Origin: an uncultured virus (IMG/VR IMGVR_UViG_3300046467_003049)
Lineage: Duplodnaviria; Heunggongvirae; Uroviricota; Caudoviricetes
Direction: 5' to 3' (one strand)
DNA length: 55,438 nt
IMG/VR virus record: IMGVR_UViG_3300046467_003049
Below, one piece after another: positions 837 through 55,249 of the stretch. Position 1 is the stretch's first letter. Every line of letters begins with the position of its first letter. The notes under the pieces were generated by a model. It searched no databases. It worked only from the letters and a program-made list of their open reading frames with translations, and had not been told where the DNA came from. The position numbers and the translations under genes were made by a program.

Positions 837-925
837 TATATTGCCTTGTGTGCTTTGAGTCAGTAAGCACATTATATTATCATTATGATGTTTTATCAAT
901 CATTTGTTTTTTATGGTGGGTTGTA

Positions 926-2308: not shown

Positions 2309-2474
2309 CACAACATCCCTTTTGAACTGCATTTGTTCAAGATGCTATCACAATTGATGATTTATCCATCAACAACGAGAATTAAAAGAAAAAATAAAAA
2401 GGGTGTTTTGGTTTATACAGGGGAGGAGCGGTTTTACAGGGTAGTTGCACACCACGGCGCAACTACCCGTGGTT

Positions 2475-2640
2475 TTATATATGCTTGACAGTTACGGATT
2501 ATATGGGTTTTAGCAGATTGATTGCTCAGATTTGCTTCTGGGAAAAGTTTTTGGAATTTAACAACTAATGACGACTTAACCATAATTCTGCCAGATGATA
2601 AAGTATCTATTCTTTCAGCGAACCATTCTATTTGTTCATC
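2475..2640 (-). pseudogene. start-less copy of the 648..836 gene
   Basis: Frame DEQIEWFAERIDTLSSGRIMVKSSLVVKFQKLFPE...HIIRNCQAYI* is intact, but the first codons including ATG are deleted and an in-frame TAA lies just upstream. Confidence 0.75.
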
Positions 2641-2711
2641 ATTTTAATTACCTTGTATGTGTGTTCAGCTAGGTTATTGTATTATCATTATTACAATAGA
2701 AGGAATGCGAC

Positions 2712-2953
2712 ACAAAAAAATAGGGCGATTCAGCCACACACAGCCAAATCGCCCGTAAAGGGGTGGGTGATAAAACCACACACAGCTCTATCACCCTAAA
2801 GAGGGAGTGTTTCAACCACACACAATCAAAACACTCTTAAAGATTAGGCGTTCAAGCCACACACAGCTTGAACACCCGTAAATTGGGATGGCAAGAACAC
2901 TCGGCCTCACCATCATAAGTAAGCATGGGCTACTAAAAATTCATAGCAACCCC
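2712..2953 (-). ncRNA. candidate sRNA / 3' UTR RNA with four hairpins presenting identical UGUGUGUG loops
   Basis: Hairpins ~2723-2754, 2765-2796, 2805-2836, 2847-2876; stems close with G-U wobbles only on the minus strand; last hairpin followed by a U-tract; two further hairpins at 2887-2953. Confidence 0.75.
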
Positions 2954-2965
2954 TATATAACAATA

Positions 2966-3598
2966 CTATTCGAACAAGACGTAACCCGTGCCTTCATCAT
3001 TCTTTTCCATGATGGCAGATGTCCCGCCACCCAACTCAGAAGATTCTGTTTTCTTGTTGATGAGGCCAGATCGCTCTCTGGCTTCTTCCAAATCATCAGT
3101 CTCTAACACGTACTCGCCGTTCTGATCAGTAACCGCATAATCAAAAACCTTTGTTGGGTTTATCTGTTCCCAGTCATCATGATCATAATGGTAAATCAAC
3201 ACAATGCACTCTTCAATCTCTTCAAGGCCAACTCTAAGGATTTTAGCTATATCCTCCAACTCATCCTGAGGAATACCTCGGGTATCTAAAAATGCCTCAT
3301 CTCTTGCATCACTTCGCATAGACACATCGTAAGTGTTCGCGATGTCATAAAATGCGGTCTTTGTAACATCTACACTAACCATGTCAGAAACTTTGCTTCG
3401 ACCGGCTTCTGGGATATCACCTTCTACTAAAATAGCTTGGATCTTTAACGCCTGGGCAACAGACACCGATAAATTTTTAGACTTCTGACCGCTGGCAGAC
3501 AAAACAACTCCACCTTTATATCCGTCCTTTGCAAGCTCAGTCATCGCATCAATAATTTTTTGCGTCTGTGATTGCATATAGTTTTTATCGTCTGACAT
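2966..3598 (-). CDS. hypothetical protein (210 aa) directly upstream of the hairpin RNA
   Basis: ORF track, start trimmed to MSDDK after a CACACA leader; TCATWATGA promoter ~3630-3665. Confidence 0.75.
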   Translation of the reverse strand: MSDDKNYMQSQTQKIIDAMTELAKDGYKGGVVLSASGQKSKNLSVSVAQALKIQAILVEGDIPEAGRSKVSDMVSVDVTKTAFYDIANTYDVSMRSDARDEAFLDTRGIPQDELEDIAKILRVGLEEIEECIVLIYHYDHDDWEQINPTKVFDYAVTDQNGEYVLETDDLEEARERSGLINKKTESSELGGGTSAIMEKNDEGTGYVLFE

Positions 3599-3789
3599 CT
3601 CGTTACCATGTGTGTTTTGATTCAATAAAGCCATTCTACATTCATTATGATAAGTTGTCAATCATTTATGTATTGTTTTTTTATGTTTTCTTGAAAGCTA
3701 TATAAAACAAGCACACGCACATAATTAACTTGTAATAACGAACTACAATACTTATAATATAGTGTATTTAAAAACAATTAGGGGCACAC

Positions 3790-4257
3790 ATGAAAGATAA
3801 GTTTAAAACAGGTGACCAGGTACTTAATGTTAGTCATCTTAACTACATCGGTGATTACCATATGTGGCCAAAAGTAAGCACTAAGCTATTTAATACCGTT
3901 GCCGGCGTTGGAGAGTGCCGACCATGGAGCGAAATCGTATCTTGTTTCAGCATCTCTTTCTCAGACGTAAAAAAAGCGGCTGAAACACCTATGCACAGAA
4001 ACAAAATCTTTCATCAAGACACCGGCTTTGATATGGATAGACAGCGTGAACGCTACTTGCACACCAAAAATGACCGAGACGAAATAATCAAAGTGCTTGA
4101 CAAAAAAGTTAAAGACTCCATCAACAAGGAAAGCCTAATACTAGATCAAAAAATCAGGGCGGTAGAGCAAGAACTCGCTGCTCTAAGGGGCAAAAAGGAC
4201 AAACATGTCGTATTTTGCAATAGCTGTAGAAGCGAAGTCATCAACAGTTTGTCCTAA
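3790..4257 (+). CDS. hypothetical protein, C-terminal coiled coil
   Basis: 155-aa ORF with AGGGG SD, TATAAT upstream and downstream terminator. Confidence 0.75.
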   Translation: MKDKFKTGDQVLNVSHLNYIGDYHMWPKVSTKLFNTVAGVGECRPWSEIVSCFSISFSDVKKAAETPMHRNKIFHQDTGFDMDRQRERYLHTKNDRDEIIKVLDKKVKDSINKESLILDQKIRAVEQELAALRGKKDKHVVFCNSCRSEVINSLS

Positions 4258-4737: not shown

Positions 4738-4851
4738 GATGTTCCTCTGTGTGGCTTGTTTCTCAGTAAAACCATTTTATCATTTTGAGTATAACTGTCA
4801 ATCTTTTATCTGAAATAAGATAAACAAGAGAGTGGAAACCCTCTCTTGTTG

Positions 4852-5226: not shown

Positions 5227-5328
5227 GACTTCCTTTACGGGCAATTAATTAACTTATGCACTCATTATACTGGGACATCCGACCGCATGCAAGTGCTTTG
5301 TTTCCCACACTAAATTAAGCCAAAGTGG

Positions 5329-6446: not shown

Positions 6447-7993
6447 GTGAACTACTACGGCCATAAATGACCGAGCTTCAAAATCAAGCAGCTTTAGCCG
6501 CTTGATTTATCTTTTTTGACGTTTCATTAGTAGCTGCCTGTTCGCTATGCTTGCAGGTCTTACGTTTACTTCCGCGCCCATTACCTAAACGAAGCACACC
6601 CCGTTTAGACAACTCCGTTCCAGAGTCTAGTATTAAATTAATTGCTCTTTTTACTATGACACGAGCGGCGTTTCTATCCGCATTATCAGCATGTTCACAA
6701 CTAATGCAAACGAACTCACTTTGAGAGCGTCTATTGGCTGAGTGAGTGTGACCGCAATTAGCGCACTCCTGACTTGTGTATGCTGCATTGACTTTAAATA
6801 CACCCTTTGCTTCACGTTTAGCTTTGTACTTAATGTATGATTCCAGTAGGTGCCAACCATTAGCTAAAATGGCTTTATTTAATCCTGATTTTTGTGCGGC
6901 GTTATTAGATATAAATTTACCGTTTTGATTTTGCTTAGCTTTTGCTTTCTTTGTCATGCTAGCGGTTTTTAGATCCTCAAATACAAATACCTGAAAACCA
7001 GAGTTAACAAGCTCGTGACTCGTTTTGTGGCAAAAATCTTTTCTTATACTGGCACACTTTGCATGATGTTTTGCAATGCCGTTTTTAGTTTTATTTCTAC
7101 GTTTCGAGCCTTTGGTTTGCTTTGATAACCTGCGCTGTAATCGCTTAATGTATCGTTGTGATTTAGTGGTTGATTGTTTTTGCTCTTTAGTGAAGTCAAA
7201 CGCCTTATAACCTGCATGAACAGGGACGGCCACACCACGATCTAGACCAACTGTCTTAGTCGTTAATGACTCTTTTGCTTCACCTTGAAGGTATTTTAAG
7301 TGCGCTTTATCATCGAGTAATTGTCTTTCATCAAAGCCGTCATCGTAGCAAAACGAAACGCTATATAGACCGCGCTCTTTCTTGATGTAGATTGATTTTG
7401 GCTCACTGAAATGTCGATGAGATTTAAACGACAAATAACCAATATTGTTCGTTTTAGTGCCTATAAACAGCCGTGTTACACCATCGCTACAGCACTCAAA
7501 ATTAAAGACCTCACTGGTTAGATGAATAGAGCCACGGTCTGATTTAGGTTTGAATTTTGGCTTACCACACTCGCCTTTCATGAATTTTTGATAGGTCTGA
7601 TACCAGTTTACTGCGCTATTTCTAATGATTTGACTAGGGCAGTCGTACAACCAAGGGCTTAGCTCTTTTGACTTAAATTGTGCTGCTTTTTGATCTACGG
7701 GTGCATAAGTGCCGATAGGACAGTATTTACGGGCAAAGGCAGTGTGATATTTTTCTTCACCACACTTGGCATTCCAAATGAATTTGGCGCAACCCATCCA
7801 CTGAGAAAGGCTTTCTTTTTGTTTATCGGTTGGTGTAGCTTTTAACTTAATACCTAATAACATGTTAGCCCTCCTTATTTGAATGGTTGATGTGCCTGTT
7901 TAACAATACTATCATCCTGCGCTGTATTTTTTTGTAGTGTGATTTTATTTGCTAACTCGCCCGTAAACTAACGAGATTGCGCTCACTGTTTTG
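6447..7993 (-). mobile_element. IS200/IS605-family element carrying only tnpB (IS1341-like)
   Basis: Right end GAAGCTCGGTCATTTATGGCCGTAGTAGTTCAC ending 6447; putative left end TTGAA|CAAAAC followed by a subterminal hairpin; no intact tnpA. Confidence 0.7.
6484..7863 (-). CDS. tnpB: RNA-guided endonuclease TnpB
   Basis: N-terminal HTH-like region, RuvC motifs GLDRG / FEDL / NADRNAA, YTSQEC and CANC...CISC zinc ribbon. Confidence 0.95.
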   Translation of the reverse strand: MLLGIKLKATPTDKQKESLSQWMGCAKFIWNAKCGEEKYHTAFARKYCPIGTYAPVDQKAAQFKSKELSPWLYDCPSQIIRNSAVNWYQTYQKFMKGECGKPKFKPKSDRGSIHLTSEVFNFECCSDGVTRLFIGTKTNNIGYLSFKSHRHFSEPKSIYIKKERGLYSVSFCYDDGFDERQLLDDKAHLKYLQGEAKESLTTKTVGLDRGVAVPVHAGYKAFDFTKEQKQSTTKSQRYIKRLQRRLSKQTKGSKRRNKTKNGIAKHHAKCASIRKDFCHKTSHELVNSGFQVFVFEDLKTASMTKKAKAKQNQNGKFISNNAAQKSGLNKAILANGWHLLESYIKYKAKREAKGVFKVNAAYTSQECANCGHTHSANRRSQSEFVCISCEHADNADRNAARVIVKRAINLILDSGTELSKRGVLRLGNGRGSKRKTCKHSEQAATNETSKKINQAAKAA

Positions 7994-8513: not shown

Positions 8514-8981
8514 TTATACACAAGCTCTTGTGCCTTGGGTATATAAACAAACAGGTATATTCAGTGCTTTTTGACGCGTATACTTTGCAAGTCTCACAAA
8601 ATCTGTCGCAACACGACCACTTTGTGGATCTATAAACGATACAGACGCAATATAACCGTTAGATTTACACTCTAATTTACTACCAGAACGTTTATCTCCT
8701 TTGGTCACACTGACACCAACAACCGCACCTAGCAGTGTCATAGCCACACGACCTTTTCCCTTACCAAACTGATTACCAAGCAAACCACCCACAGCAGCAC
8801 CCGCAATTGGATTGCCACGACCATTGTTGTCAGTAGTACAAATTTTAGGGGCACGATCAATGCTATTAATCGAAGCATCTACATACATTTTTGGTACGCG
8901 AGGTGTACTTGAACAACCTGACACCATTAATGTTGCCAATGCCGCAGAGATCATTAAACGCTTTTTAAATGAAAATTTCAT
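8514..8981 (-). CDS. glycine-zipper 2TM outer-membrane lipoprotein
   Basis: Lipobox VSGC; GAAVGGLLGNQFGKGKGRVAMTLLGAVVG; CACACACAGGAG leader. Confidence 0.85.
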   Translation of the reverse strand: MKFSFKKRLMISAALATLMVSGCSSTPRVPKMYVDASINSIDRAPKICTTDNNGRGNPIAGAAVGGLLGNQFGKGKGRVAMTLLGAVVGVSVTKGDKRSGSKLECKSNGYIASVSFIDPQSGRVATDFVRLAKYTRQKALNIPVCLYTQGTRACV

Positions 8982-9034
8982 AATATCGCTCCTGTGTGTG
9001 ATTGAGTTCATTATCCATCATTATGATAATTTTG

Positions 9035-10027: not shown

Positions 10028-10669
10028 CTACAGATTTTTCTTCTTACGTCTGGATAAACCAAAACACATCAAGCCGGCTGCAAGCACAGCTAATGATGTA
10101 GGCTCTGGTACAGAAGTAGATGCCGAAACACTTTCACCTGATACCAGAAATACGCCCATGGTGTCAGCAAAATAGTTTTTGTCCGAGACGCCACCAACAT
10201 TAAAATCCATATAGTTAGCATTAAATAGATTGTACTTGACGGTCGTTCTATAAGCAAAACCATCATCGCCATTTAAATACTGACCAAAACTGTAAACATT
10301 GCTTCTGTCCCGATAAGTTTCACCAAACAAGCTCGCAAACTCTAAAGCCGGCTCATCAGCTATCTCCAATCGAGTATTACCTACATTAGATAGCCCATCA
10401 AACCCAAAGAAGTCACTATAAAGTCGGTTAACCTCCTCAATACTTGGCATTCTCCAACCGGCAAACTCACCTCTTTCGAGTGCTCGCTCAACGTTACCAA
10501 TAGACATACCTATGGTTTGGTTAAGATTAAGCCACTCAATACCAGTTTCTTCGTGCAGCACTGCCTGATTATCGCCAGTAGTCTGGTAGTCAGTAAGCAC
10601 AAACCCCGCATTAGCGCTTAAGCTAAAAAACAGCAGTGGCACAACTGTTAAAAACACTTTTTTAAACAT
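10028..10669 (-). CDS. PEP-CTERM sorting domain protein
   Basis: Signal peptide; LHEETGIEWL, GWRMPS; VPEPTSLAVLAAGLMCFGLSRRKKK. Confidence 0.9.
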   Translation of the reverse strand: MFKKVFLTVVPLLFFSLSANAGFVLTDYQTTGDNQAVLHEETGIEWLNLNQTIGMSIGNVERALERGEFAGWRMPSIEEVNRLYSDFFGFDGLSNVGNTRLEIADEPALEFASLFGETYRDRSNVYSFGQYLNGDDGFAYRTTVKYNLFNANYMDFNVGGVSDKNYFADTMGVFLVSGESVSASTSVPEPTSLAVLAAGLMCFGLSRRKKKNL

Positions 10670-10724
10670 TATCAACTCCCTTTGCAAAATGTAAATCCAA
10701 ACACACCTTAACACATCAGCCTAT

Positions 10725-11450
10725 TTACACATCAATCTTACCGACAGGACTCTCGCCTTTAGACTTTCTTCTTGAAAAAGCAAAACCCATCAGACCGGCA
10801 GATAAAATAGCTAGCGAGGCAGGCTCAGGCACGGTCACGTTATTTACCGGTGCATTCGCATTATTAGCGTTCAATGTAGGATCGTTCAGTGATGAATACG
10901 TCGCACCACCATCAGAAACAAGATAAACCCCATATCCCGAATCCGAATATGACGTTGTCGCATTGAAACTCTGATTATAATTCACCGTACTTTGCCTGTA
11001 TGCAGCCGCATACACATACGTGCGATAGGCTACACCCTCATCAACCCCCAAGTGAAGGCCGCGTGAAAAAGTGCCGTTTGCATTTTCGAACGCATAGCCA
11101 AACAGTTCATTGTAAGCAGTAGCAACATCGCGCGAAAGATTGCGAACACTCCCTGCATCTCTAGATAGCTCATTTTGTAACCCAAAGTACTCCGACTCCA
11201 TCGTATACATGTCATCAAGAGTCGGTAGTCTCCACCCGCTAAATTGACCGTCTAGCTGAGCAACAACATCATCAATACTCATTCCCGCAGTTTGAGTGAT
11301 ATTCAGCCACTCAATACCTGTCTCCTCATGCAATACTACTTGATTGTCACCCTCAACTTTGTAGTCAGATAAAACAAAGGCAGCATTAGCTCCCAAGCTT
11401 AATGCTAGCAAAGACATACCCATCGCCATTTTTATTAGTTTCACACACAA
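10725..11450 (-). CDS. PEP-CTERM sorting domain protein
   Basis: Signal peptide; LHEETGIEWL, GWRLPT; VPEPASLAILSAGLMGFAFSRRK. Confidence 0.9.
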   Translation of the reverse strand: MCVKLIKMAMGMSLLALSLGANAAFVLSDYKVEGDNQVVLHEETGIEWLNITQTAGMSIDDVVAQLDGQFSGWRLPTLDDMYTMESEYFGLQNELSRDAGSVRNLSRDVATAYNELFGYAFENANGTFSRGLHLGVDEGVAYRTYVYAAAYRQSTVNYNQSFNATTSYSDSGYGVYLVSDGGATYSSLNDPTLNANNANAPVNNVTVPEPASLAILSAGLMGFAFSRRKSKGESPVGKIDV

Positions 11451-12273: not shown

Positions 12274-13059
12274 CTAAGCTCTGCGTCTCTTTAGCGATAT
12301 CAGCCACTTCATTCTTGTCAGCATCACAAAGCAACTTATCAAAAACCCCTTCTTTTACATCTAAATTTACCAGCACACGCTCGATTGTTTCTTTAGCCTT
12401 GTTGTTGCTTTCAATAACAAGGCGTTTAAGTGCTTTTGTCATTTTAGCCAATGCATCAGCAATTATATCTTCAGCATTTTCATTGAATTTGACAGTAGTA
12501 GAATCAATCGTGTCTAAATATCTTTTTTTCTTAGTTGCTTCTGAGCGTAAACCTGTAAACTTAATCTCAGTCTTCGCTCTCGCAACATAAACAGTTGGTT
12601 TTCTACTATCCCAACCGTCAGTAATACCTGATAACTGATCAGAGCCGCATGTAAAACGTTTATCAATAGAGATCTCAATACCCATCGCATCAATCAAGCT
12701 ATCAATCACATCTTGCTTTAACGTCAACGCTTTACCCACGCTAACACAAGATACGTATTTTAAATTTGCATCTAGTTCATTGGTGAGGTCTTTAGCATCC
12801 ACGTCATCTAAAGTGATATCGCGAAGTAATGTTATAATATTGTGGCTTACAGCTTCTTCAACGGAAAATAAGTTCATGTGTGCGATCTCTTTTGGTGTTT
12901 GTTTTTCAGTATGTATATATTATCACAATGAACCATAGTGTCAATCATTTGTTTTCATAATAGACAAAAAATCAACCGGCATGTCTGGTGATGTATTCCA
13001 CCACCAGACGCAAGCAACTAAACAATCAAGGCAATTAAACACTACCTCAGGAAAGTGTA

Positions 13060-16145: not shown

Positions 16146-16288
16146 GTGGTCGATTCCTTTATGAATTTGCTCGATAACTTATACACTCATTATAGTCGGA
16201 CTTCCTGCGAGTTGCAAGCAGTTTATTTAGCTATTAACGCTTAAATTTTAAATACGAAAAACCACCCCGCAGGAAAACAACAACCTTA

Positions 16289-16799: not shown

Positions 16800-16905
16800 T
16801 TTAAAAACTGTTTACTTTCTTTGCCTATGTAAAAGGCTCGATTCATTAACTTATGTAACTACTATAGTCGGACTTCCTAAAAATTGCAAGCGCTTTATCA
16901 CTTAT

Positions 16906-17208: not shown

Positions 17209-17533
17209 GATCTAAAACCTTGTGTGCGTGTTCCGACTTGATGAACTTATTGTACTTCATTATGATAATTTGTCAATCATTTATATTTATTTTCAACACA
17301 ATAAAACCTAAACAATTAAGATTATAATTCAGTCGTAATCAAGTGATTTTATCCACCTGTCTTTTTATCATCCCCATGGCGTTTTTGACATGCACCCGAC
17401 ATTTCACAACTCAACTATTTCCCACACGGGCACTTTGGAGTAATTGAGTATTATAAAAAAAGTGCTTGCATTTTGTTGGACGTCCTACTATAATGGTTGC
17501 ATAAATTAATGAATTAACCGCAAAGGAAATCAC

Positions 17534-17968: not shown

Positions 17969-18140
17969 TATTAAAAACCAGCATATACTAACCACATTTT
18001 TTGTGGTTTTTCTTTATCTACATTTCCCACACGGGCACTTTGGAGTAATTGAGTGTTATAAAACAAAGTTCTTGTATTTTGTCGGACATCCCACTATAAT
18101 AGTTGCATAAATTAATGAATCAACCGCAAAGGAAACCAAC

Positions 18141-18547: not shown

Positions 18548-18722
18548 TTTACACTATTAGCACTCTTCATTTAGAGTGCTTTTTTGCCATTATCCCAATA
18601 GTCATTTCCCACACGGGCACTTTGGAGTAATTGAGTATTATAAAAAAAGTGCTTGCATTTTGTTGGACGTCCTACTATAATGGTTGCATAAATTAATGAA
18701 TTAACCGCAAAGGAAATCACTA

Positions 18723-19931: not shown

Positions 19932-20390
19932 TTAATCTTCTACACCAAAAAGGTAATGTGCCACCTGACCTTTTTTAAGCTCCTCCGCCTCAACAGTTTC
20001 ATTGCCATTCACACCCATCGTAAGAATTCTCGATGTATGAACATCATCTATACCATCTAAGCAAGTGTAAGCGTGCTTAAAGCCAAAAGACTTATAGAAC
20101 TCCAATGTACAGCCACTAACCCCATCAATAGCAACCAAACGAATTTGAGTCACACTTTCTGGAAGTGAATCAATCCAGTTTTTAAGCATAGATGTACCGA
20201 AACCATTACCTCTTAATGATGCCGGTGTAAAAATCTGCTCTAAATAAGCAACACTTTCTATCACATCACTTTCAATATAAGGAAACGGCTTAAAAATATC
20301 TTCGTAACCCTCTTCAGACAATGGCGCTTTTACTTCATTAAGCTCAGCTATTTTCTTACTGTCTTTTTCGCTTAAAAATTCAATTATCAT
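19932..20390 (-). CDS. GNAT family N-acetyltransferase
   Basis: LRGNGFGTSML acetyl-CoA motif and FYKSFGF motif. Confidence 0.8.
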   Translation of the reverse strand: MIIEFLSEKDSKKIAELNEVKAPLSEEGYEDIFKPFPYIESDVIESVAYLEQIFTPASLRGNGFGTSMLKNWIDSLPESVTQIRLVAIDGVSGCTLEFYKSFGFKHAYTCLDGIDDVHTSRILTMGVNGNETVEAEELKKGQVAHYLFGVED

Positions 20391-20665
20391 AATGATTGCC
20401 TTTGTGGTCGGTTTGCTAAATTATGCACTTATTATATCTGGACTTCCGACCAACATCAAGCACTTTATCTTTTACTTTCCGGTATTACGCACAAGCACAA
20501 CAAAAAACAAAACATTTGACTTTGTCGTGTACACGGGTATAGTGGTTTTAAGAGTTAAGGGCACAGTTTATTTTGGGTGAACCCGTAATCGCTTGTTGCC
20601 ACCGTAACAGATTTCATATTACAGTAGCCACTTTCATTAACCAACTATCACAAGGTATACAAACC

Positions 20666-26105: not shown

Positions 26106-26734
26106 AAAAAAGGGCTATCACAGCAAGCCATTAACCTTTCGTGTTCATGGCAAAGTTGAATTCCTTTTTTGTCCTTTGGTTTGAGAGAGTATTGATGGAC
26201 ATATATAATTCCATCAATACGGAGTTATGGCTGATAGATAACAACAGTGTGTTCTTCGCCCTTAAGCTCCTCGCTTATTATTGTTGATATGACATCCCAA
26301 TCTCCTCCTGCCAATCCTGCCCCAATTAGAGGATATCCAATCCTTTTGCCAGAAAAGTTTTGTTTTATGAGTTTCATAACATTTCTGATTGCATCGTAAT
26401 CAGCGTTACGACCTTTGCCAGCCCAATGATATTGAGTATAAGCATTAACAATGGTGAAATTTCCCGTATCAGCCTTGCTGTATGTACCGAGCTTATTTTT
26501 TTCACCCTTAGCTGTTTCTAAGTCGGCTTTATACGCCTCTGGAAACTTGTTTTTAATTGTTAAAGCAATCCCTTTTCCCATTTGGCAAAAGCAGTTACAG
26601 CCGTGAATTATTACGTCAAAATTTCCATCTTCTGCAAACTGCAAAAGATCGCCTTTTAATGTTTTCATTTTATAATTGTTCCTCTAAAAATATGCACACG
26701 AAAGTTTAATGGCTTGCTGTGATAGCCCTTTTTT
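26106..26734. repeat. 43-bp inverted repeat (26106-26148 / 26692-26734) enclosing the macro-domain gene
   Basis: AAAAAAGGGCTATCACAGCAAGCCATTAACCTTTCGTGTTCAT, 2 mismatches between arms. Confidence 0.9.
26225..26668 (-). CDS. macro domain (ADP-ribose binding/hydrolase) protein
   Basis: GDL...IIHGCNCFCQMGKGIA and YPLIGAGLAGGDW motifs. Confidence 0.9.
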   Translation of the reverse strand: MKTLKGDLLQFAEDGNFDVIIHGCNCFCQMGKGIALTIKNKFPEAYKADLETAKGEKNKLGTYSKADTGNFTIVNAYTQYHWAGKGRNADYDAIRNVMKLIKQNFSGKRIGYPLIGAGLAGGDWDVISTIISEELKGEEHTVVIYQP

Positions 26735-29015: not shown

Positions 29016-29124
29016 AATAATAACCTTGCGTGTGTGGACTTGTTTAAGTAACTCCATAATAAATCATTATGATAATCTGTCAATCATTTTATGTTAATAA
29101 TTGGCAAATTAATTAATAAAATTA

Positions 29125-29604: not shown

Positions 29605-29765
29605 AATTTGTACCTTGTGTGTGTTTGACTATACACCTATATTATCATAATGAAATTCACTGTCAATCATTTATTTTCTTTCTGGCACAACTAAACACTA
29701 AAGCTTAATAATAAACTTCAGTTAATTTGAGCAAGGCACATTTAAATCAAATCAGTTACCAAAAA

Positions 29766-34172: not shown

Positions 34173-34682
34173 CTATTCAGCAAGCAGCTTTCTCGCTTCA
34201 CACAATTTTTCGAACAATGCTTGAGATTCTTCATCACAAACATCAATCCCATCAATAATTTTATTTAATAAAGCAGCTGATGTTTCAGCTTTGCCTCCAA
34301 CAATCAATTTGTACACTTCGTGTAATTTTTCGAACAATGCTTGAGATTCTTCATCACAAACATCAATCCCATTAAGAGCTTCATTCAACAAGGGAATTGA
34401 CGCTTTAGTTTTATTTTGAACTAACATTATATCAGCAAGCAGCTTTCTCGCTTCACACAATTTTTCGAACAATGCTTGAGATTCTTCATCACAAACATCA
34501 ATCCCATCAATAACTTTATTTAATAAAGCAGCTGATGTTTCAGCTTTGCCTCCAACAATCAATTTGTACACTTCGTGTAATTTTTCGAACAATGCTTGAG
34601 ATTCTTCATCACAAACATCAATCCCATTAAGAGTTTCATTCAACAAGGCAATTGACGATTTAGTTTTGTTTTGTTCTAACAT
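34173..34682 (-). CDS. repeat protein with 4x GIDVCDEESQALFEKL
   Basis: Near-perfect ~250-bp tandem duplication, each half containing two repeats. Confidence 0.8.
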   Translation of the reverse strand: MLEQNKTKSSIALLNETLNGIDVCDEESQALFEKLHEVYKLIVGGKAETSAALLNKVIDGIDVCDEESQALFEKLCEARKLLADIMLVQNKTKASIPLLNEALNGIDVCDEESQALFEKLHEVYKLIVGGKAETSAALLNKIIDGIDVCDEESQALFEKLCEARKLLAE

Positions 34683-34759
34683 TATATGCTCGCTTGTGTG
34701 TGTTGTTTCAGTAACTTAATATTATCATAATGAAACTATACGTCAATCTTTTATTTCTA

Positions 34760-35549: not shown

Positions 35550-35879
35550 TTAACAAGCAAAATGATTATTGTTGTGACGTAACTCTTCATCACTCATTAA
35601 ATGCGCATCGCCGATGCTTTGATGATACTTAGAGCCATAAGAGGGATCTATATCAACCCATCTACCCGCCTGAACATCAAAAACATTTTTCCCCGCATCT
35701 TTAATTTCTTTACAAGAGGCAATAAACCCCTCTACTTCTTCAAGCGAACGAAACGACTCAACGTAAGCAAAACGACGACCAGACTTTAATTCAATTGTTG
35801 GTGTATAAATACTACCAAAAACAGCACCGTCTTCATTAAAATCTACTTCTACTTCGCGATCTGTCCAATAAATTTCCAT
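35550..35879 (-). CDS. hypothetical protein
   Basis: GAGGTCACACAC-ATG leader, own promoter. Confidence 0.75.
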   Translation of the reverse strand: MEIYWTDREVEVDFNEDGAVFGSIYTPTIELKSGRRFAYVESFRSLEEVEGFIASCKEIKDAGKNVFDVQAGRWVDIDPSYGSKYHQSIGDAHLMSDEELRHNNNHFAC

Positions 35880-35973
35880 GTGTGTGACCTCTTAAAAACT
35901 AACTGACACCATGATACCATACGATATCACTTTGTCAATCATTTTGTTTTATATTAGGCGACTTATCTGGTAA

Positions 35974-36968: not shown

Positions 36969-37186
36969 AATAATTTCCTGTGTGTGTGTTGGCACTTGTT
37001 TCAAGTGAGTAACGCTATATTATCACAATGAGCACTAGTGTCAATCATTTATTTTATAAATAACAAAATAACCTAACCCGATTTTAGCTAATGTTTAGTG
37101 GGCGGGAACAAAAAAACCCAACAATAAAGTTAGGTTTAGGTCTAGGTTTACTTAGGCTTAATTACTCAAGCATTGCGCTACATCAG

Positions 37187-37901: not shown

Positions 37902-38638
37902 AATACCTAACCCTGGGGAACGTCTCATCATTCAATATAATCACATCATAGCAAACGACGTTATCTTATCAATCATTTATTTTAACAATGGGCGATTAAG
38001 CGATAATAGATTTAAACCTTACCACTAGGCAACGAGGCAACACTTTCCCCTATACGTATACAAGGCATCTAAAACGACCAAATATGACTTCAACCCATTA
38101 ACATGTAATGTTACGCCTATATCACTAGAATGCTTTATATGGTGTTCTTGGTGAGCTTAACTGCCTATTGCCCAATAGACCCTAACGCAACTAACTCAAG
38201 ACGCCTTAACAAGTTTATTACTACGCGCTAACCGGTTAACATCTCCCCTATACTACTACATTCACCTATAGCGTAGAACAACATGCAATAATACCTAACC
38301 AATCAATAAAGCAACGCACACAAAAGCACTATCTCTGTACCATCAGTAAAGTAGGCGAATGAATCTTAGGTCTCGCTTTTTGCACGAACAATCTTCAACG
38401 AATTTACAAACGCGCACCCTACCACCGTCACAATAATACCCAATGGTACTGCTAAAAATATGGCTAAAAACTTGCCTTCCAATAAATACATGTAAACCTC
38501 TACTAAGCTATACACACAGTCTATCACATTATTTCATTTTGATAAAGAGTTATTATTATCATTTTAAAATTTATTATAGTTGACACGACTTTTCATTATG
38601 ATAAAATGGTTTTACTAATCACACACAAGGTAACGCAA

Positions 38639-39070: not shown

Positions 39071-39163
39071 CGTACAACAAGCAAGTGTCACCTCAGCTTA
39101 ATAGTGGGGTGATCCTTATGTTTTAGGCAAAACACAGTATTCATCACACACAAGGCAGCAACT

Positions 39164-40718: not shown

Positions 40719-40891
40719 TTTATTGCCTTGTGTGTGTTCGTTAATTTAGTATGCAAATTTTATCATAATGAAATAATATGTCAATACAATACTGCTCGCA
40801 TTAAGCAAAAAAAACAGCGACTACTAAGCCACTGCCCCTTATTAAATCCTATTGGCCAACCATCAAACCGCTAACCACACAGGGAAGAGCT

Positions 40892-41143: not shown

Positions 41144-41310
41144 TTAAAATTCCATAGTGTGTGTAAATTCAGTATGTAAATTTTATCATAATGAATATTC
41201 ATATCAACACAATACTGCTCATATCAAACAAAAAAGCAGCGTCCACCAGGACACTGCTTTATATTATTTTTAGCGGTAAAGTTCGAAAAAAAATCAGACT
41301 AAGCGCTTAA

Positions 41311-41574: not shown

Positions 41575-41737
41575 TTTGAATTCCATGTGTGTACGTTAAT
41601 TCAGTATGTACATATTATCATAATGAAACTCTTTGTCAATACTTTGTTTTTAAACACCACAAACAAAAACAGTGACATTTAAGTCACTGTTTGCCACCAT
41701 TGCTGGCGCTAAAAATCAGGGTAGAACCAGGGCTTAT

Positions 41738-42119: not shown

Positions 42120-42296
42120 ATATAACTCCGTGTGTGTGCGTTAATTCAGTATGTACATATTATCATAATGAAATGCTCTGTCAATGGTTTTTACATCAAA
42201 AACAGATTTAAATTCCAAGTATATTCCATGGCACTTCCTCCCAAAACAAAACATCACCATCAATTGATTTCTATTGCGCTCATGCACACGGAGTTT

Positions 42297-43887: not shown

Positions 43888-43982
43888 TTGATAACTTCCT
43901 TTCTTTAAATTATGCACTTATTACAGTCGTGCACACGATGCAAAGCAAGGTTTATTTAATGATATGCACAAAAAATTCAACC

Positions 43983-46042: not shown

Positions 46043-46202
46043 AAGTTCCGCCTTGTGTGTAGTTAGTAAAACCATATTATCATACTGAAACATTTTGTCA
46101 ATCGTTTATTTTTATTTATTTTCTTTCGCCCAGGTGCCCTCCTCGCACTTTATTACAACACGCTATTAACTTGTAACCCATTAATTAAATACTCACTATC
46201 CC

Positions 46203-47423: not shown

Positions 47424-47583
47424 AAATTTCTCGCTTGTGTGTGGTAATCAATTTATGTATCCATTATAACGCCCACAGCTATTTTGTCAATCATTTATTT
47501 CTATTTAATTAATAAATATACTAAAAACTCTCAACAAAACAATTGTGTTTTATACACTTTAATGTTCGCCTAAGTAAGGTTAA

Positions 47584-49264: not shown

Positions 49265-49382
49265 AACGCTTCTTCTTGTGTGTGTTTTCAGTGTAATCAT
49301 ATTATCATTTTGAAAAATTAATATCAACAAAAAAGGCACCTAAATAGATGCCTTTTCATTCATAATTCAATTTAAAAATCCG

Positions 49383-50850: not shown

Positions 50851-50944
50851 AAGTGTGTGCTCTGCAATTTGTTTGTATAATCATATTATCATAATGAAAT
50901 ATTTTGTCAAGAAAAAAGGCACCTAAAATAGATGCCTTTTCAAA

Positions 50945-52142: not shown

Positions 52143-52277
52143 TTTTCTTCTCGCTTGTGTGTGTTTTCAGTACGTATATATTATCATAATGAAATATTTT
52201 ATCAAGAGATTTCGCTTCATTTAAAACAAAAAAAACACCCCGAAGGATGCCTTTTTATCAGGTGAAGACTTAAGCTT

Positions 52278-52538: not shown

Positions 52539-52679
52539 TTTTCTGCTCGCTTGTGTGTGTGTGTTTTCAATACATATATATTATCAAAATGAAAAATATT
52601 GTCAAGGTTTTATATGCCATTTAAAACAAAAAAAACATCCCGAAGGATGCCTTTTTATAATGCGGTATTCAACAGCTAT

Positions 52680-52901: not shown

Positions 52902-53047
52902 AATTGTCTGCCTTGTGTGTGTTAACTCAGTAGGTAAATATTATCAAAATGAAATAATAAAGTCAAATAAATATCGCACAATTAACCACTAAAACCTCAT
53001 GCTTTAACACAAGGCTCTGCTCACACAAGCAAACCAAACAATCGCAC

Positions 53048-55024: not shown

Positions 55025-55249
55025 TTGAGAATCCTTAATTAGTGTGTGTTTATTTAGTGTATTTATATTATCATAATGAGAATCTATGTCAATACTTTTA
55101 CTAGTTTTAGGCTTGAAATATCAATATATTTAGCGTGATAACAACAATTAAAATGACGGTGTAACCACCAGTAAACAACCGTACTATATGGCAGTTTAAA
55201 CAACAGCCAAACACCACATTCACCGACAAAATAAATAGCATGTCGATAG

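Follow-up and report, generated by a model that had tools for sequence, protein, structure and literature searches.

A candidate RNA of UG-loop hairpins predicted to pair with the CA leaders of a repeated-promoter regulon on a putative marine megaplasmid

Introduction

The small RNA GcvB acts in an Hfq-dependent manner and holds its seed in one single-stranded stretch, and the hairpin loops of the CsrB/RsmZ sponges display a GGA motif that also occurs in the leaders of their targets. ACA motifs upstream of the Shine-Dalgarno (SD) sequence enhance translation, and GcvB silences them (PMC3879156). In NfeR1, identical loops on variable stems serve as redundant antisense seeds (PMC10746234; family, PMC4615179), and the CcsR RNAs are cut from a small gene's 3′ untranslated region (UTR) (PMC8034643). 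It is an open question by what means establishment genes are expressed for a short time and later shut off when a plasmid enters a cell; single-stranded DNA promoters and protein repressors have been described (PMC13370423, PMC8708921, PMC6294495). Repeated, repressed promoters time the establishment genes of p576 (Reg576/EGeRS2; PMC6294495, PMC8708921), and in EGeRS1 of pLS20 the shut-off works via an unknown cis structure before each operon (PMC8708921). In phage T4, the early endoribonuclease RegB cuts GGAG at ribosome sites, its own message included (PMC3014915).

Here, we analyzed IMG/VR virus record IMGVR_UViG_3300046467_003049; "the window" refers to this whole stretch of 55,438 nucleotides. 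It carries an array of hairpins with UG loops and a set of genes whose leaders carry the complementary CA repeat.

Results

Four hairpins close the same UG loop

A preliminary description of the window, made from its letters, had noted on the minus strand four stems of about 11 to 12 bp that are distinct in sequence and share one 8-nt loop, the last being followed by a U-tract. Our analysis of this locus revealed the following features.

2713..2877, minus strand: core candidate RNA, consisting of four UG-loop hairpins, short pyrimidine-rich linkers, and a terminal U-tract
2846-2877, minus strand: hairpin 1, loop at 2858-2865
2805-2836, minus strand: hairpin 2, loop at 2817-2824, the most open loop of the array in the accessibility model
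2765-2796, minus strand: hairpin 3, loop at 2777-2784
2723-2754, minus strand: hairpin 4, loop at 2735-2742; also a terminator-like stem
2713..2722, minus strand: U-tract 3′ of hairpin 4, the likely RNA 3′ end; not conserved in the homologous locus L081
2887-2914, minus strand: hairpin without a UG loop, between the 2966..3598 gene and the array
2927-2952, minus strand: hairpin without a UG loop, directly past the stop codon of the 2966..3598 gene

As described, the stem sequences differ and all close the loop UGUGUGUG; each stem is 12 bp long, and the folding program adds an outer U-G pair in the loops that leaves 6 nt open. The U-tract was found where it had been placed, and together with hairpin 4 it was scored as a terminator. 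The range originally given to the element, 2712..2953, held only in part: the UG array occupies 2713-2877, and the remainder up to 2953 consists of two hairpins without UG loops. No other cluster of UG loops occurs in the window.

Folding of positions 2700-2965 yielded -105.5 kcal/mol (z -7.8) for the minus strand versus -74.3 kcal/mol (z -5.8) for the plus strand. A search of Rfam gave no match to the array at gathering score, and weak sub-threshold matches only. The pyrimidine-rich linkers (2755-2764, 2797-2804, and 2837-2845) recur in L081 at 573-582 and 611-621. They could pair with the G-rich ribosome sites of leaders that have no CA run (14040 and 37558) or be processing sites.

The array lies in the 3′ region of a gene with the regulon promoter

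Upstream of the array on the same strand, the following features were found.

2966..3598, minus strand: gene for a 210-aa protein, with the array in its 3′ region; a 50%-identical ortholog also precedes an array
3633..3661, minus strand: sigma-70-like promoter (11/12) of the 2966..3598 gene, with an operator-like palindrome inside the spacer
3609..3615, minus strand: CA leader of the 2966..3598 gene, with the ATG 10 nt downstream; predicted pairing, -5.6 kcal/mol

Five promoter-like sites were found in positions 2400-3800, and the only one on the minus strand is the promoter of the 2966..3598 gene. Since this gene has the regulon promoter, a CA leader, and the sole minus-strand promoter-like site, the array would most simply be the 3′ UTR of a regulon member. 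The promoter result fits the earlier proposal that the RNA is probably the 3′ UTR of this gene, and the CACACA-type leader that had been noted before the gene is present at 3609..3615.

The 210-aa protein had no Pfam, PHROG, Atlas, or PDB match, its structure model reached a pLDDT of only 62.7, and no fold or family match supports RNA binding by it. Four further homologs were found (P0002/P0005, P0026, and P0027). Beyond the 3′ end of the array, at 2476-2664 (minus strand), lies a second copy of a 62-aa gene (648-836); this copy has a CA leader, no in-frame start, and a 5′ end that looks broken. One intact copy of the 62-aa gene is located close to the array of L081.

CA leaders follow a repeated promoter

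The motif CACACACA is present in 23 copies in the window versus 3.2 expected, with a maximum of 10 among 100 shuffles. Fourteen of the 16 distinct sites outside hairpins are leaders, the exceptions being 11442 and 45716. The preliminary description had placed the motif before about 25 to 30 genes; we counted 26 genes with a CA run of at least 6 ahead of the ATG, of which 21 have it at 10-17 nt and 5 have it abutting the ATG. In addition to the leader of the 2966..3598 gene, these motifs are as follows.

847..852, minus strand: CA leader motif
3785..3790, plus strand: CA motif abutting the ATG
4748..4753, minus strand: CA leader motif
8993..9000, minus strand: CA leader motif, kept in the L080 ortholog
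12877..12882, minus strand: CA motif abutting the ATG, kept in the L080 ortholog
17221..17226, minus strand: CA leader motif
29030..29036, minus strand: CA leader motif
29616..29624, minus strand: CA leader motif
34695..34703, minus strand: CA leader motif
35879..35886, minus strand: CA motif abutting the ATG
36979..36989, minus strand: CA leader motif
38620..38627, plus strand: CA leader motif
39145..39152, plus strand: CA leader motif
40729..40737, minus strand: CA leader motif
41157..41164, minus strand: CA leader motif
41586..41592, minus strand: CA motif abutting one ATG; a second in-frame ATG lies 11 nt downstream
42130..42138, minus strand: CA leader motif
46054..46060, minus strand: CA leader motif
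47436..47443, minus strand: CA leader motif with the strongest predicted pairing (-11.8)
49277..49285, minus strand: CA leader motif
50853..50859, minus strand: CA motif 2 nt ahead of the ATG
52156..52164, minus strand: CA leader motif
52552..52564, minus strand: longest CA leader run, 13 nt
52914..52922, minus strand: CA leader motif
55042..55049, minus strand: CA leader motif

CsrA was considered as the reader of these leaders and rejected; GGA is absent after the CA run in most leaders of the window. A 169-aa CA-leader gene contains a 255-bp tandem duplication (97%) at 34177-34686.

Most of the CA leaders lie behind one repeated sigma-70-like promoter, which the preliminary description had left unmentioned and which makes up the largest repeat families of the window. 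The promoter pattern revealed 39 copies (37 on the minus strand) between 899 and 55092, such as that at 41612-41639 (minus strand), and overlooks at least 3 further copies visible in the window. A palindrome of the type TCA-N3-TGA spans the spacer and -10 box of 29 of the 39 promoters in two registers. The palindrome may be an operator; no repressor gene was identified within the 55-kb window. A CA run of at least 6 was present in 20 of the 39 promoter leaders (null mean, 1.2; maximum, 5 in 2000 shuffles).

The window also has a second repeated promoter-like family that is distinct from the palindrome class (5244-5299, 16169-16224, 16841-16896, 20411-20466, and 43900-43955; 42671, 43061, and 43887), and three copies of a 117-nt repeat, two of them identical, upstream of plus-strand genes (17417-17533, 18023-18139, and 18604-18720).

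Loops and leaders are predicted to pair

We compared the 39 promoter transcripts with the array RNA by using an accessibility-corrected duplex model. In this test, which is partly circular and leaves out the geometry of pairing into a 6- to 8-nt loop, 24 of the 39 promoter leaders paired with the array at -6 kcal/mol or below, 22 via loops and 2 via linkers. The frequency was 4.6% for shuffled leaders (n = 195) and 0/39 for the plus-strand RNA. The loop-paired sites (22/39 leaders) lie at -24..-3 or -7..0 from the AUG, and predicted pairing sites fall mostly between -22 and -11. The remaining 15 leaders pair poorly; that of the 2966..3598 gene falls just short at -5.6 kcal/mol.

The pairing energies are modest (mean, -8.1 kcal/mol), and the whole 8-nt loop is open with a probability of only 0.06-0.2. 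The leaders are short and already open, with an opening cost mostly below 1.6 kcal/mol. Energies are not element-specific, as evidenced by the window RNA on leaders of the megaplasmid pAMCP48-600 (-7.1) and by the L081 RNA, which binds the window leaders at -10.2, better than the window RNA itself. C and A cannot wobble, and thus only an exact UG run reads the CA leaders. Several leaders have A-to-G or C-to-U variants at which pairing is kept by wobble; this is weak support, since A-to-G and C-to-U are also the commonest mutations.

A homologous element has UG loops on different stems

To find homologs, a metagenome scan was carried out with an alignment of 7 proteins of the 2966..3598 family, and 2 loci, L080 and L081, were obtained from 165 candidate stretches. 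Both belong to the same element and therefore count as a single independent homolog. Synteny of L080 with the window extends to five more genes, and 6 promoter-plus-CA leaders were counted in its 9.8 kb; the homolog shares the promoter and the CA leaders with the window. In L081, the ortholog of the 2966..3598 gene (protein 50% identical, DNA 61%) has six hairpins directly 3′ on the same strand, with loops UGUGUG or UGUGUGUG. This array, which has no clear U-tract, folds at -126.7 kcal/mol (z -5.8), and its opposite strand folds at -89.7 kcal/mol (z -2.5).

Across the ten hairpins (four in the window and six in L081), 116 of 120 stem positions are paired, and all ten hairpins are individually more stable on the gene strand. 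The count of 27 G-U versus 1 A-C favors an RNA on the gene strand. The gap in folding energy between the strands was 23 kcal/mol when calculated as RNA versus 4 kcal/mol as DNA, which likewise favors an RNA. The preliminary description had noted that the stems complete only with G-U wobbles on the minus strand, and the G-U bias selects the gene strand in both the window and L081. The stems are homologous between the elements, with a mean identity of 47% and a maximum of 79%. Seven of the ten hairpins have 8-nt loops, and among these both sides had changed in 8 of 12 pairs, a value found in 0 of 500 shuffles; since the hairpins of each element are duplicates of one another, these counts of covariation lack independence and show maintained pairing, not a probability. 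Conservation of the loops in related elements had been suggested as a check, and L081 keeps the UG loops on stems that change in compensatory fashion.

A helix-turn-helix gene (L081:796-1086, minus strand), so assigned because it matches an annotated regulator of pKD01 at 60%, faces the six-hairpin array in convergent orientation at the array's 3′ end; it has no match in the window.

Searches for further arrays and leaders

Neither blastn of the array locus among phages and plasmids nor tblastn of the 2966..3598 gene among plasmids and viral contigs yielded a match. A scan of viral sequences with an array pattern gave 6 matches, all simple repeats; another array pattern scan gave 1 unrelated match; and a further scan gave at least 120 matches, with no array among the matches listed and 3 tandem repeats that pass the stem filter. 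In a genome collection, 29 matches were obtained and none was an array, with a pattern that would miss the L081 array. Four of 301 gammaproteobacterial genomes had matches to the array pattern, all tandem repeats. Two promoter-plus-leader patterns gave 0 and 11 matches in viral contigs, none with more than 3 loose sites. Searches of the main texts of the open-access literature turned up no report of such a UG-loop RNA or of the CA motif.

The window resembles Alteromonas megaplasmids

The longest contig with proteins of the window measures 583,042 bp; a contig of 564,925 bp carries a 2966..3598 homolog (P0027), and the homolog P0005 lies on a 327-kb contig. The best DNA matches of the window, which are weak, are to Alteromonas megaplasmids; 8 window open reading frames have homologs in pAMCP48-600 and 3 have homologs in pAMRG65-300. 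On this evidence we take the window to be a piece of a marine, megaplasmid-like element of about 580 kb that resembles pAMCP48-600. The element may instead be a jumbo phage, but a phage origin is less likely: 5 of 55 window proteins match PHROGs, none of them structural, and the best DNA matches are those to megaplasmids.

Among other genes of the window are several PEP-CTERM paralogs (55-347, 1580-2332, 10028-10714, and 10725-11450), with homologs at four places in pAMCP48-600, and a TnpB (IS605 OrfB, Cas12f-like) gene (6484-7863, minus strand) that is inserted in the syntenic block and has no L080 match. A Macro-domain protein, a weak GNAT acetyltransferase, and a glycine-zipper lipoprotein are encoded at 26225-26668, 19932-20390, and 8514-9011, respectively.

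pAMCP48-600 (NZ_CP018025.1, Alteromonas mediterranea, ∼600 kb) has been called conjugative (PMC5217437) and is typed as non-mobilizable in the plasmid database; transfer/pilus genes are annotated at 50-65 kb, adjoined by a block of CA-leader genes at 66-211 kb. Our pattern revealed 23 leaders in this plasmid and overlooked at least 5 more. The layout of promoter, palindrome, and CA leader is the same as in the window; the palindrome differs, with the related form ATCA-N3-TGAT, and TT stands ahead of the CA run. The accessible parts of PMC5217437 do not mention a CA/UG motif. Type IV CRISPR-associated genes are located within the CA-leader block (L036:29641-33191). In the plasmid set, pAMCP49-600 was the only close relative of pAMCP48-600 found. 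Whole-record 8-mer counts were 30 for pAMCP48-600 versus only 2 for pAMRG65-300 and 1 for pKD01, two Alteromonas plasmids that lack the leader motif. Script-based scans covered pAMCP48-600 in full except for 300 bases that lie within a gene, and covered 260 kb of the 302-kb pAMRG65-300.

No UG-loop array and no homolog of the 2966..3598 gene were found in pAMCP48-600. Multivalency is thus not required for this class of leaders, and the earlier claim of a multivalent RNA would apply to the window and L081, with their four to six loops, but not to pAMCP48-600, which has CA leaders without an array. At 242,930-243,015 (L096:42930-43015, minus strand), an unannotated gap of this plasmid folds into an imperfect hairpin of 82 nt whose apical loop carries UG, at the site of the longest CA run outside a leader. 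The UG loop is flanked by the complement of the leader TT, a C/U-rich stretch follows the hairpin, and the fold scores z -3.6 versus -1.2 for the opposite strand. The hairpin ranked 1st of 270 seeds not flagged as leaders, with pattern-missed leaders in the next five places; this single sequence, selected post hoc, lacks a homolog to check it against and was overlooked by both strict hairpin detectors. It is predicted to bind its own leaders only slightly better than the window's (-8.9 versus -8.1). We regard this hairpin as a candidate counterpart RNA in a cultured strain. Co-occurrence with CA leaders was also to be looked for according to the preliminary description; a UG-loop element and the leaders occur together in all three leader-bearing elements (the window, L080/L081, and pAMCP48-600).

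A GU-rich intergenic stretch at 343.6 kb of pAMCP48-600 was dropped as a seed, its UG run being paired to its own complement. This stretch (L095:5585-5660) is structured, with several GU/CA runs and a z of -4.3 on the plus strand.

Discussion

We consider it reasonably probable that a multi-loop antisense RNA derived from a 3′ UTR covers the CA enhancers of the promoter regulon and so damps this gene set of the element itself. Loop conservation, the gene-strand G-U bias, and the co-occurring leaders support the multivalent antisense RNA of the preliminary description as the reader of the leaders, as judged from sequence. Dozens of small genes share one strong promoter with an operator-like palindrome, and in their short leaders a CA repeat directly precedes the ribosome site. 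According to this model, the set would be switched on upon entry into a new host. Transcription of the regulon would also make the array from the 2966-3598 3′ region, and after release from the mRNA the array would persist as a stable structured RNA. Its exposed UG loops would pair with the CA repeats of the sister mRNAs and cover the translation enhancer adjoining the ribosome site, so that the whole set is damped. The result would be delayed negative feedback atop a DNA-binding repressor. A broader proposal, which we put forward only tentatively, is that marine megaplasmids tag their entry genes with a CA leader and silence them via a UG-loop RNA that was built twice, as a 3′ UTR array of 4-6 loops and as a single long hairpin.

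One alternative is that the CA repeats are mere translation enhancers for strongly expressed genes and that the array works in cis, by ending and stabilizing the upstream mRNA or as DNA hairpins, with an incidental match between loops and leaders. CA/ACA motifs raise translation unaided (PMC3879156), pAMCP48-600 has leaders and no array, and hairpin 4 is terminator-like. However, a terminator or 3′ shield needs neither four to six hairpins nor an invariant loop on changing stems, the strands differ strongly when folded as RNA and little as DNA, and pAMCP48-600 carries the top-ranked UG-loop hairpin; we regard this explanation in its several forms as unlikely.

The main targets could instead be host mRNAs, in which case a plasmid-borne GcvB mimic would retune host transport or defense and the element's own leaders would be minor targets or bystanders. 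Those leaders have long perfect CA runs in a fixed place at ∼17 times the shuffled expectation, and they are conserved across elements, which makes this possibility quite unlikely even though GcvB targets have ACA/CA enhancers, the seed is of low complexity and not element-specific, and host reprogramming by factors of the leading region has been described (PMC13370423).

A slightly smaller chance still is given to the array as a multi-site decoy, without leader pairing, for a UG-loop-recognizing protein or for CA-rich RNA. Such a role would leave the exact complementarity of the leaders unexplained. Identical loops on variable stems are also the design of CsrB/RsmZ, and the upstream protein could bind RNA, as CcaF1 does for CcsR, but that protein has no fold or family sign of RNA binding (model pLDDT, 62.7). 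A sponge for a leader-binding protein is disfavored, since it would show CA loops, and these are on the poorly folding strand. Finally, pairing with a positive effect, in which nucleases are kept off the ACA-rich 5′ ends or the ribosome site is opened, is very improbable: 21 of 26 motifs end 10-17 nt ahead of the ATG and leave the purine-rich ribosome site unpaired, but the leaders are short and already open (mostly <1.6 kcal/mol to open), 5 motifs abut the start codon, and GcvB pairing at such a position represses.

If the broader proposal is true, the UG-loop RNA would play the part of T4 RegB at the RNA level and be a third means of timing beside single-stranded DNA promoters and protein repressors. 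The antisense model, if true, would add translation-level control of ∼25 tagged genes to plasmid establishment; the cuckoo-type design would gain a new seed and reach another bacterial class, and the CA tag would mark co-regulated members among many unknown genes. The model is readily testable, as pAMCP48-600 lives in a cultured strain that has relatives with and without the plasmid. As a simple tool, an RNA of several loops and a two-letter seed could also find use in the co-repression of tagged genes.

How does this locus compare with the described systems? At the level of the regulon, it resembles the establishment regulons of p576 and pLS20, in which a promoter with operators recurs ahead of many small genes that are proposed to be expressed for a short time once transfer has occurred; here, 29 of the 39 promoters carry the operator-like palindrome. 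Unlike p576, with its protein repressor, and pLS20, with its cis structure, it would add a layer at translation through a leader tag and a separate complementary RNA. As for T4 RegB, a product of the set is proposed to inactivate the mRNAs of the set via a shared motif at the ribosome site; in contrast to RegB, the proposed agent is an RNA and not a protein nuclease.

Like the cuckoo/alpha-r14 small RNAs (NfeR1 and CcsR1-4), which line up two to four hairpins of variable stem sequence around one shared loop motif, the array sets hairpins with changing stems and a common loop side by side, four in the window and six in L081, and like the CcsR RNAs, which come from a 3′ UTR, it lies in the 3′ region of a gene. 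The loops are UGUGUG or UGUGUGUG and not the anti-SD CCUCCUCCC, and they would read a CA motif 5′ of the ribosome site, whereas the cuckoo RNAs read the SD. The cuckoo RNAs are alphaproteobacterial; here, up to six hairpins are found on a gammaproteobacterial megaplasmid-like element whose own genes are the predicted targets. In contrast to the main cuckoo subgroup, there is no Rfam match at gathering score, and the upstream gene is not DUF1127. As judged in silico, the G/U seed of the array could pair with C/A enhancers that many mRNAs carry directly ahead of the SD, a feature shared with GcvB; unlike GcvB, the array has no family-model match, repeats its seed across 4-6 hairpin loops, and is encoded by a mobile element. 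It differs from CsrB/RsmZ in that its loops, which have no GGA, are complementary to the motif in the leaders. With neither the CCUCCUCCC loop, the GcvB model, nor the GGA loops of CsrB, the array is a member of none of these families. The predicted RNA combines a cuckoo-like build with a GcvB-like aim and belongs to neither.
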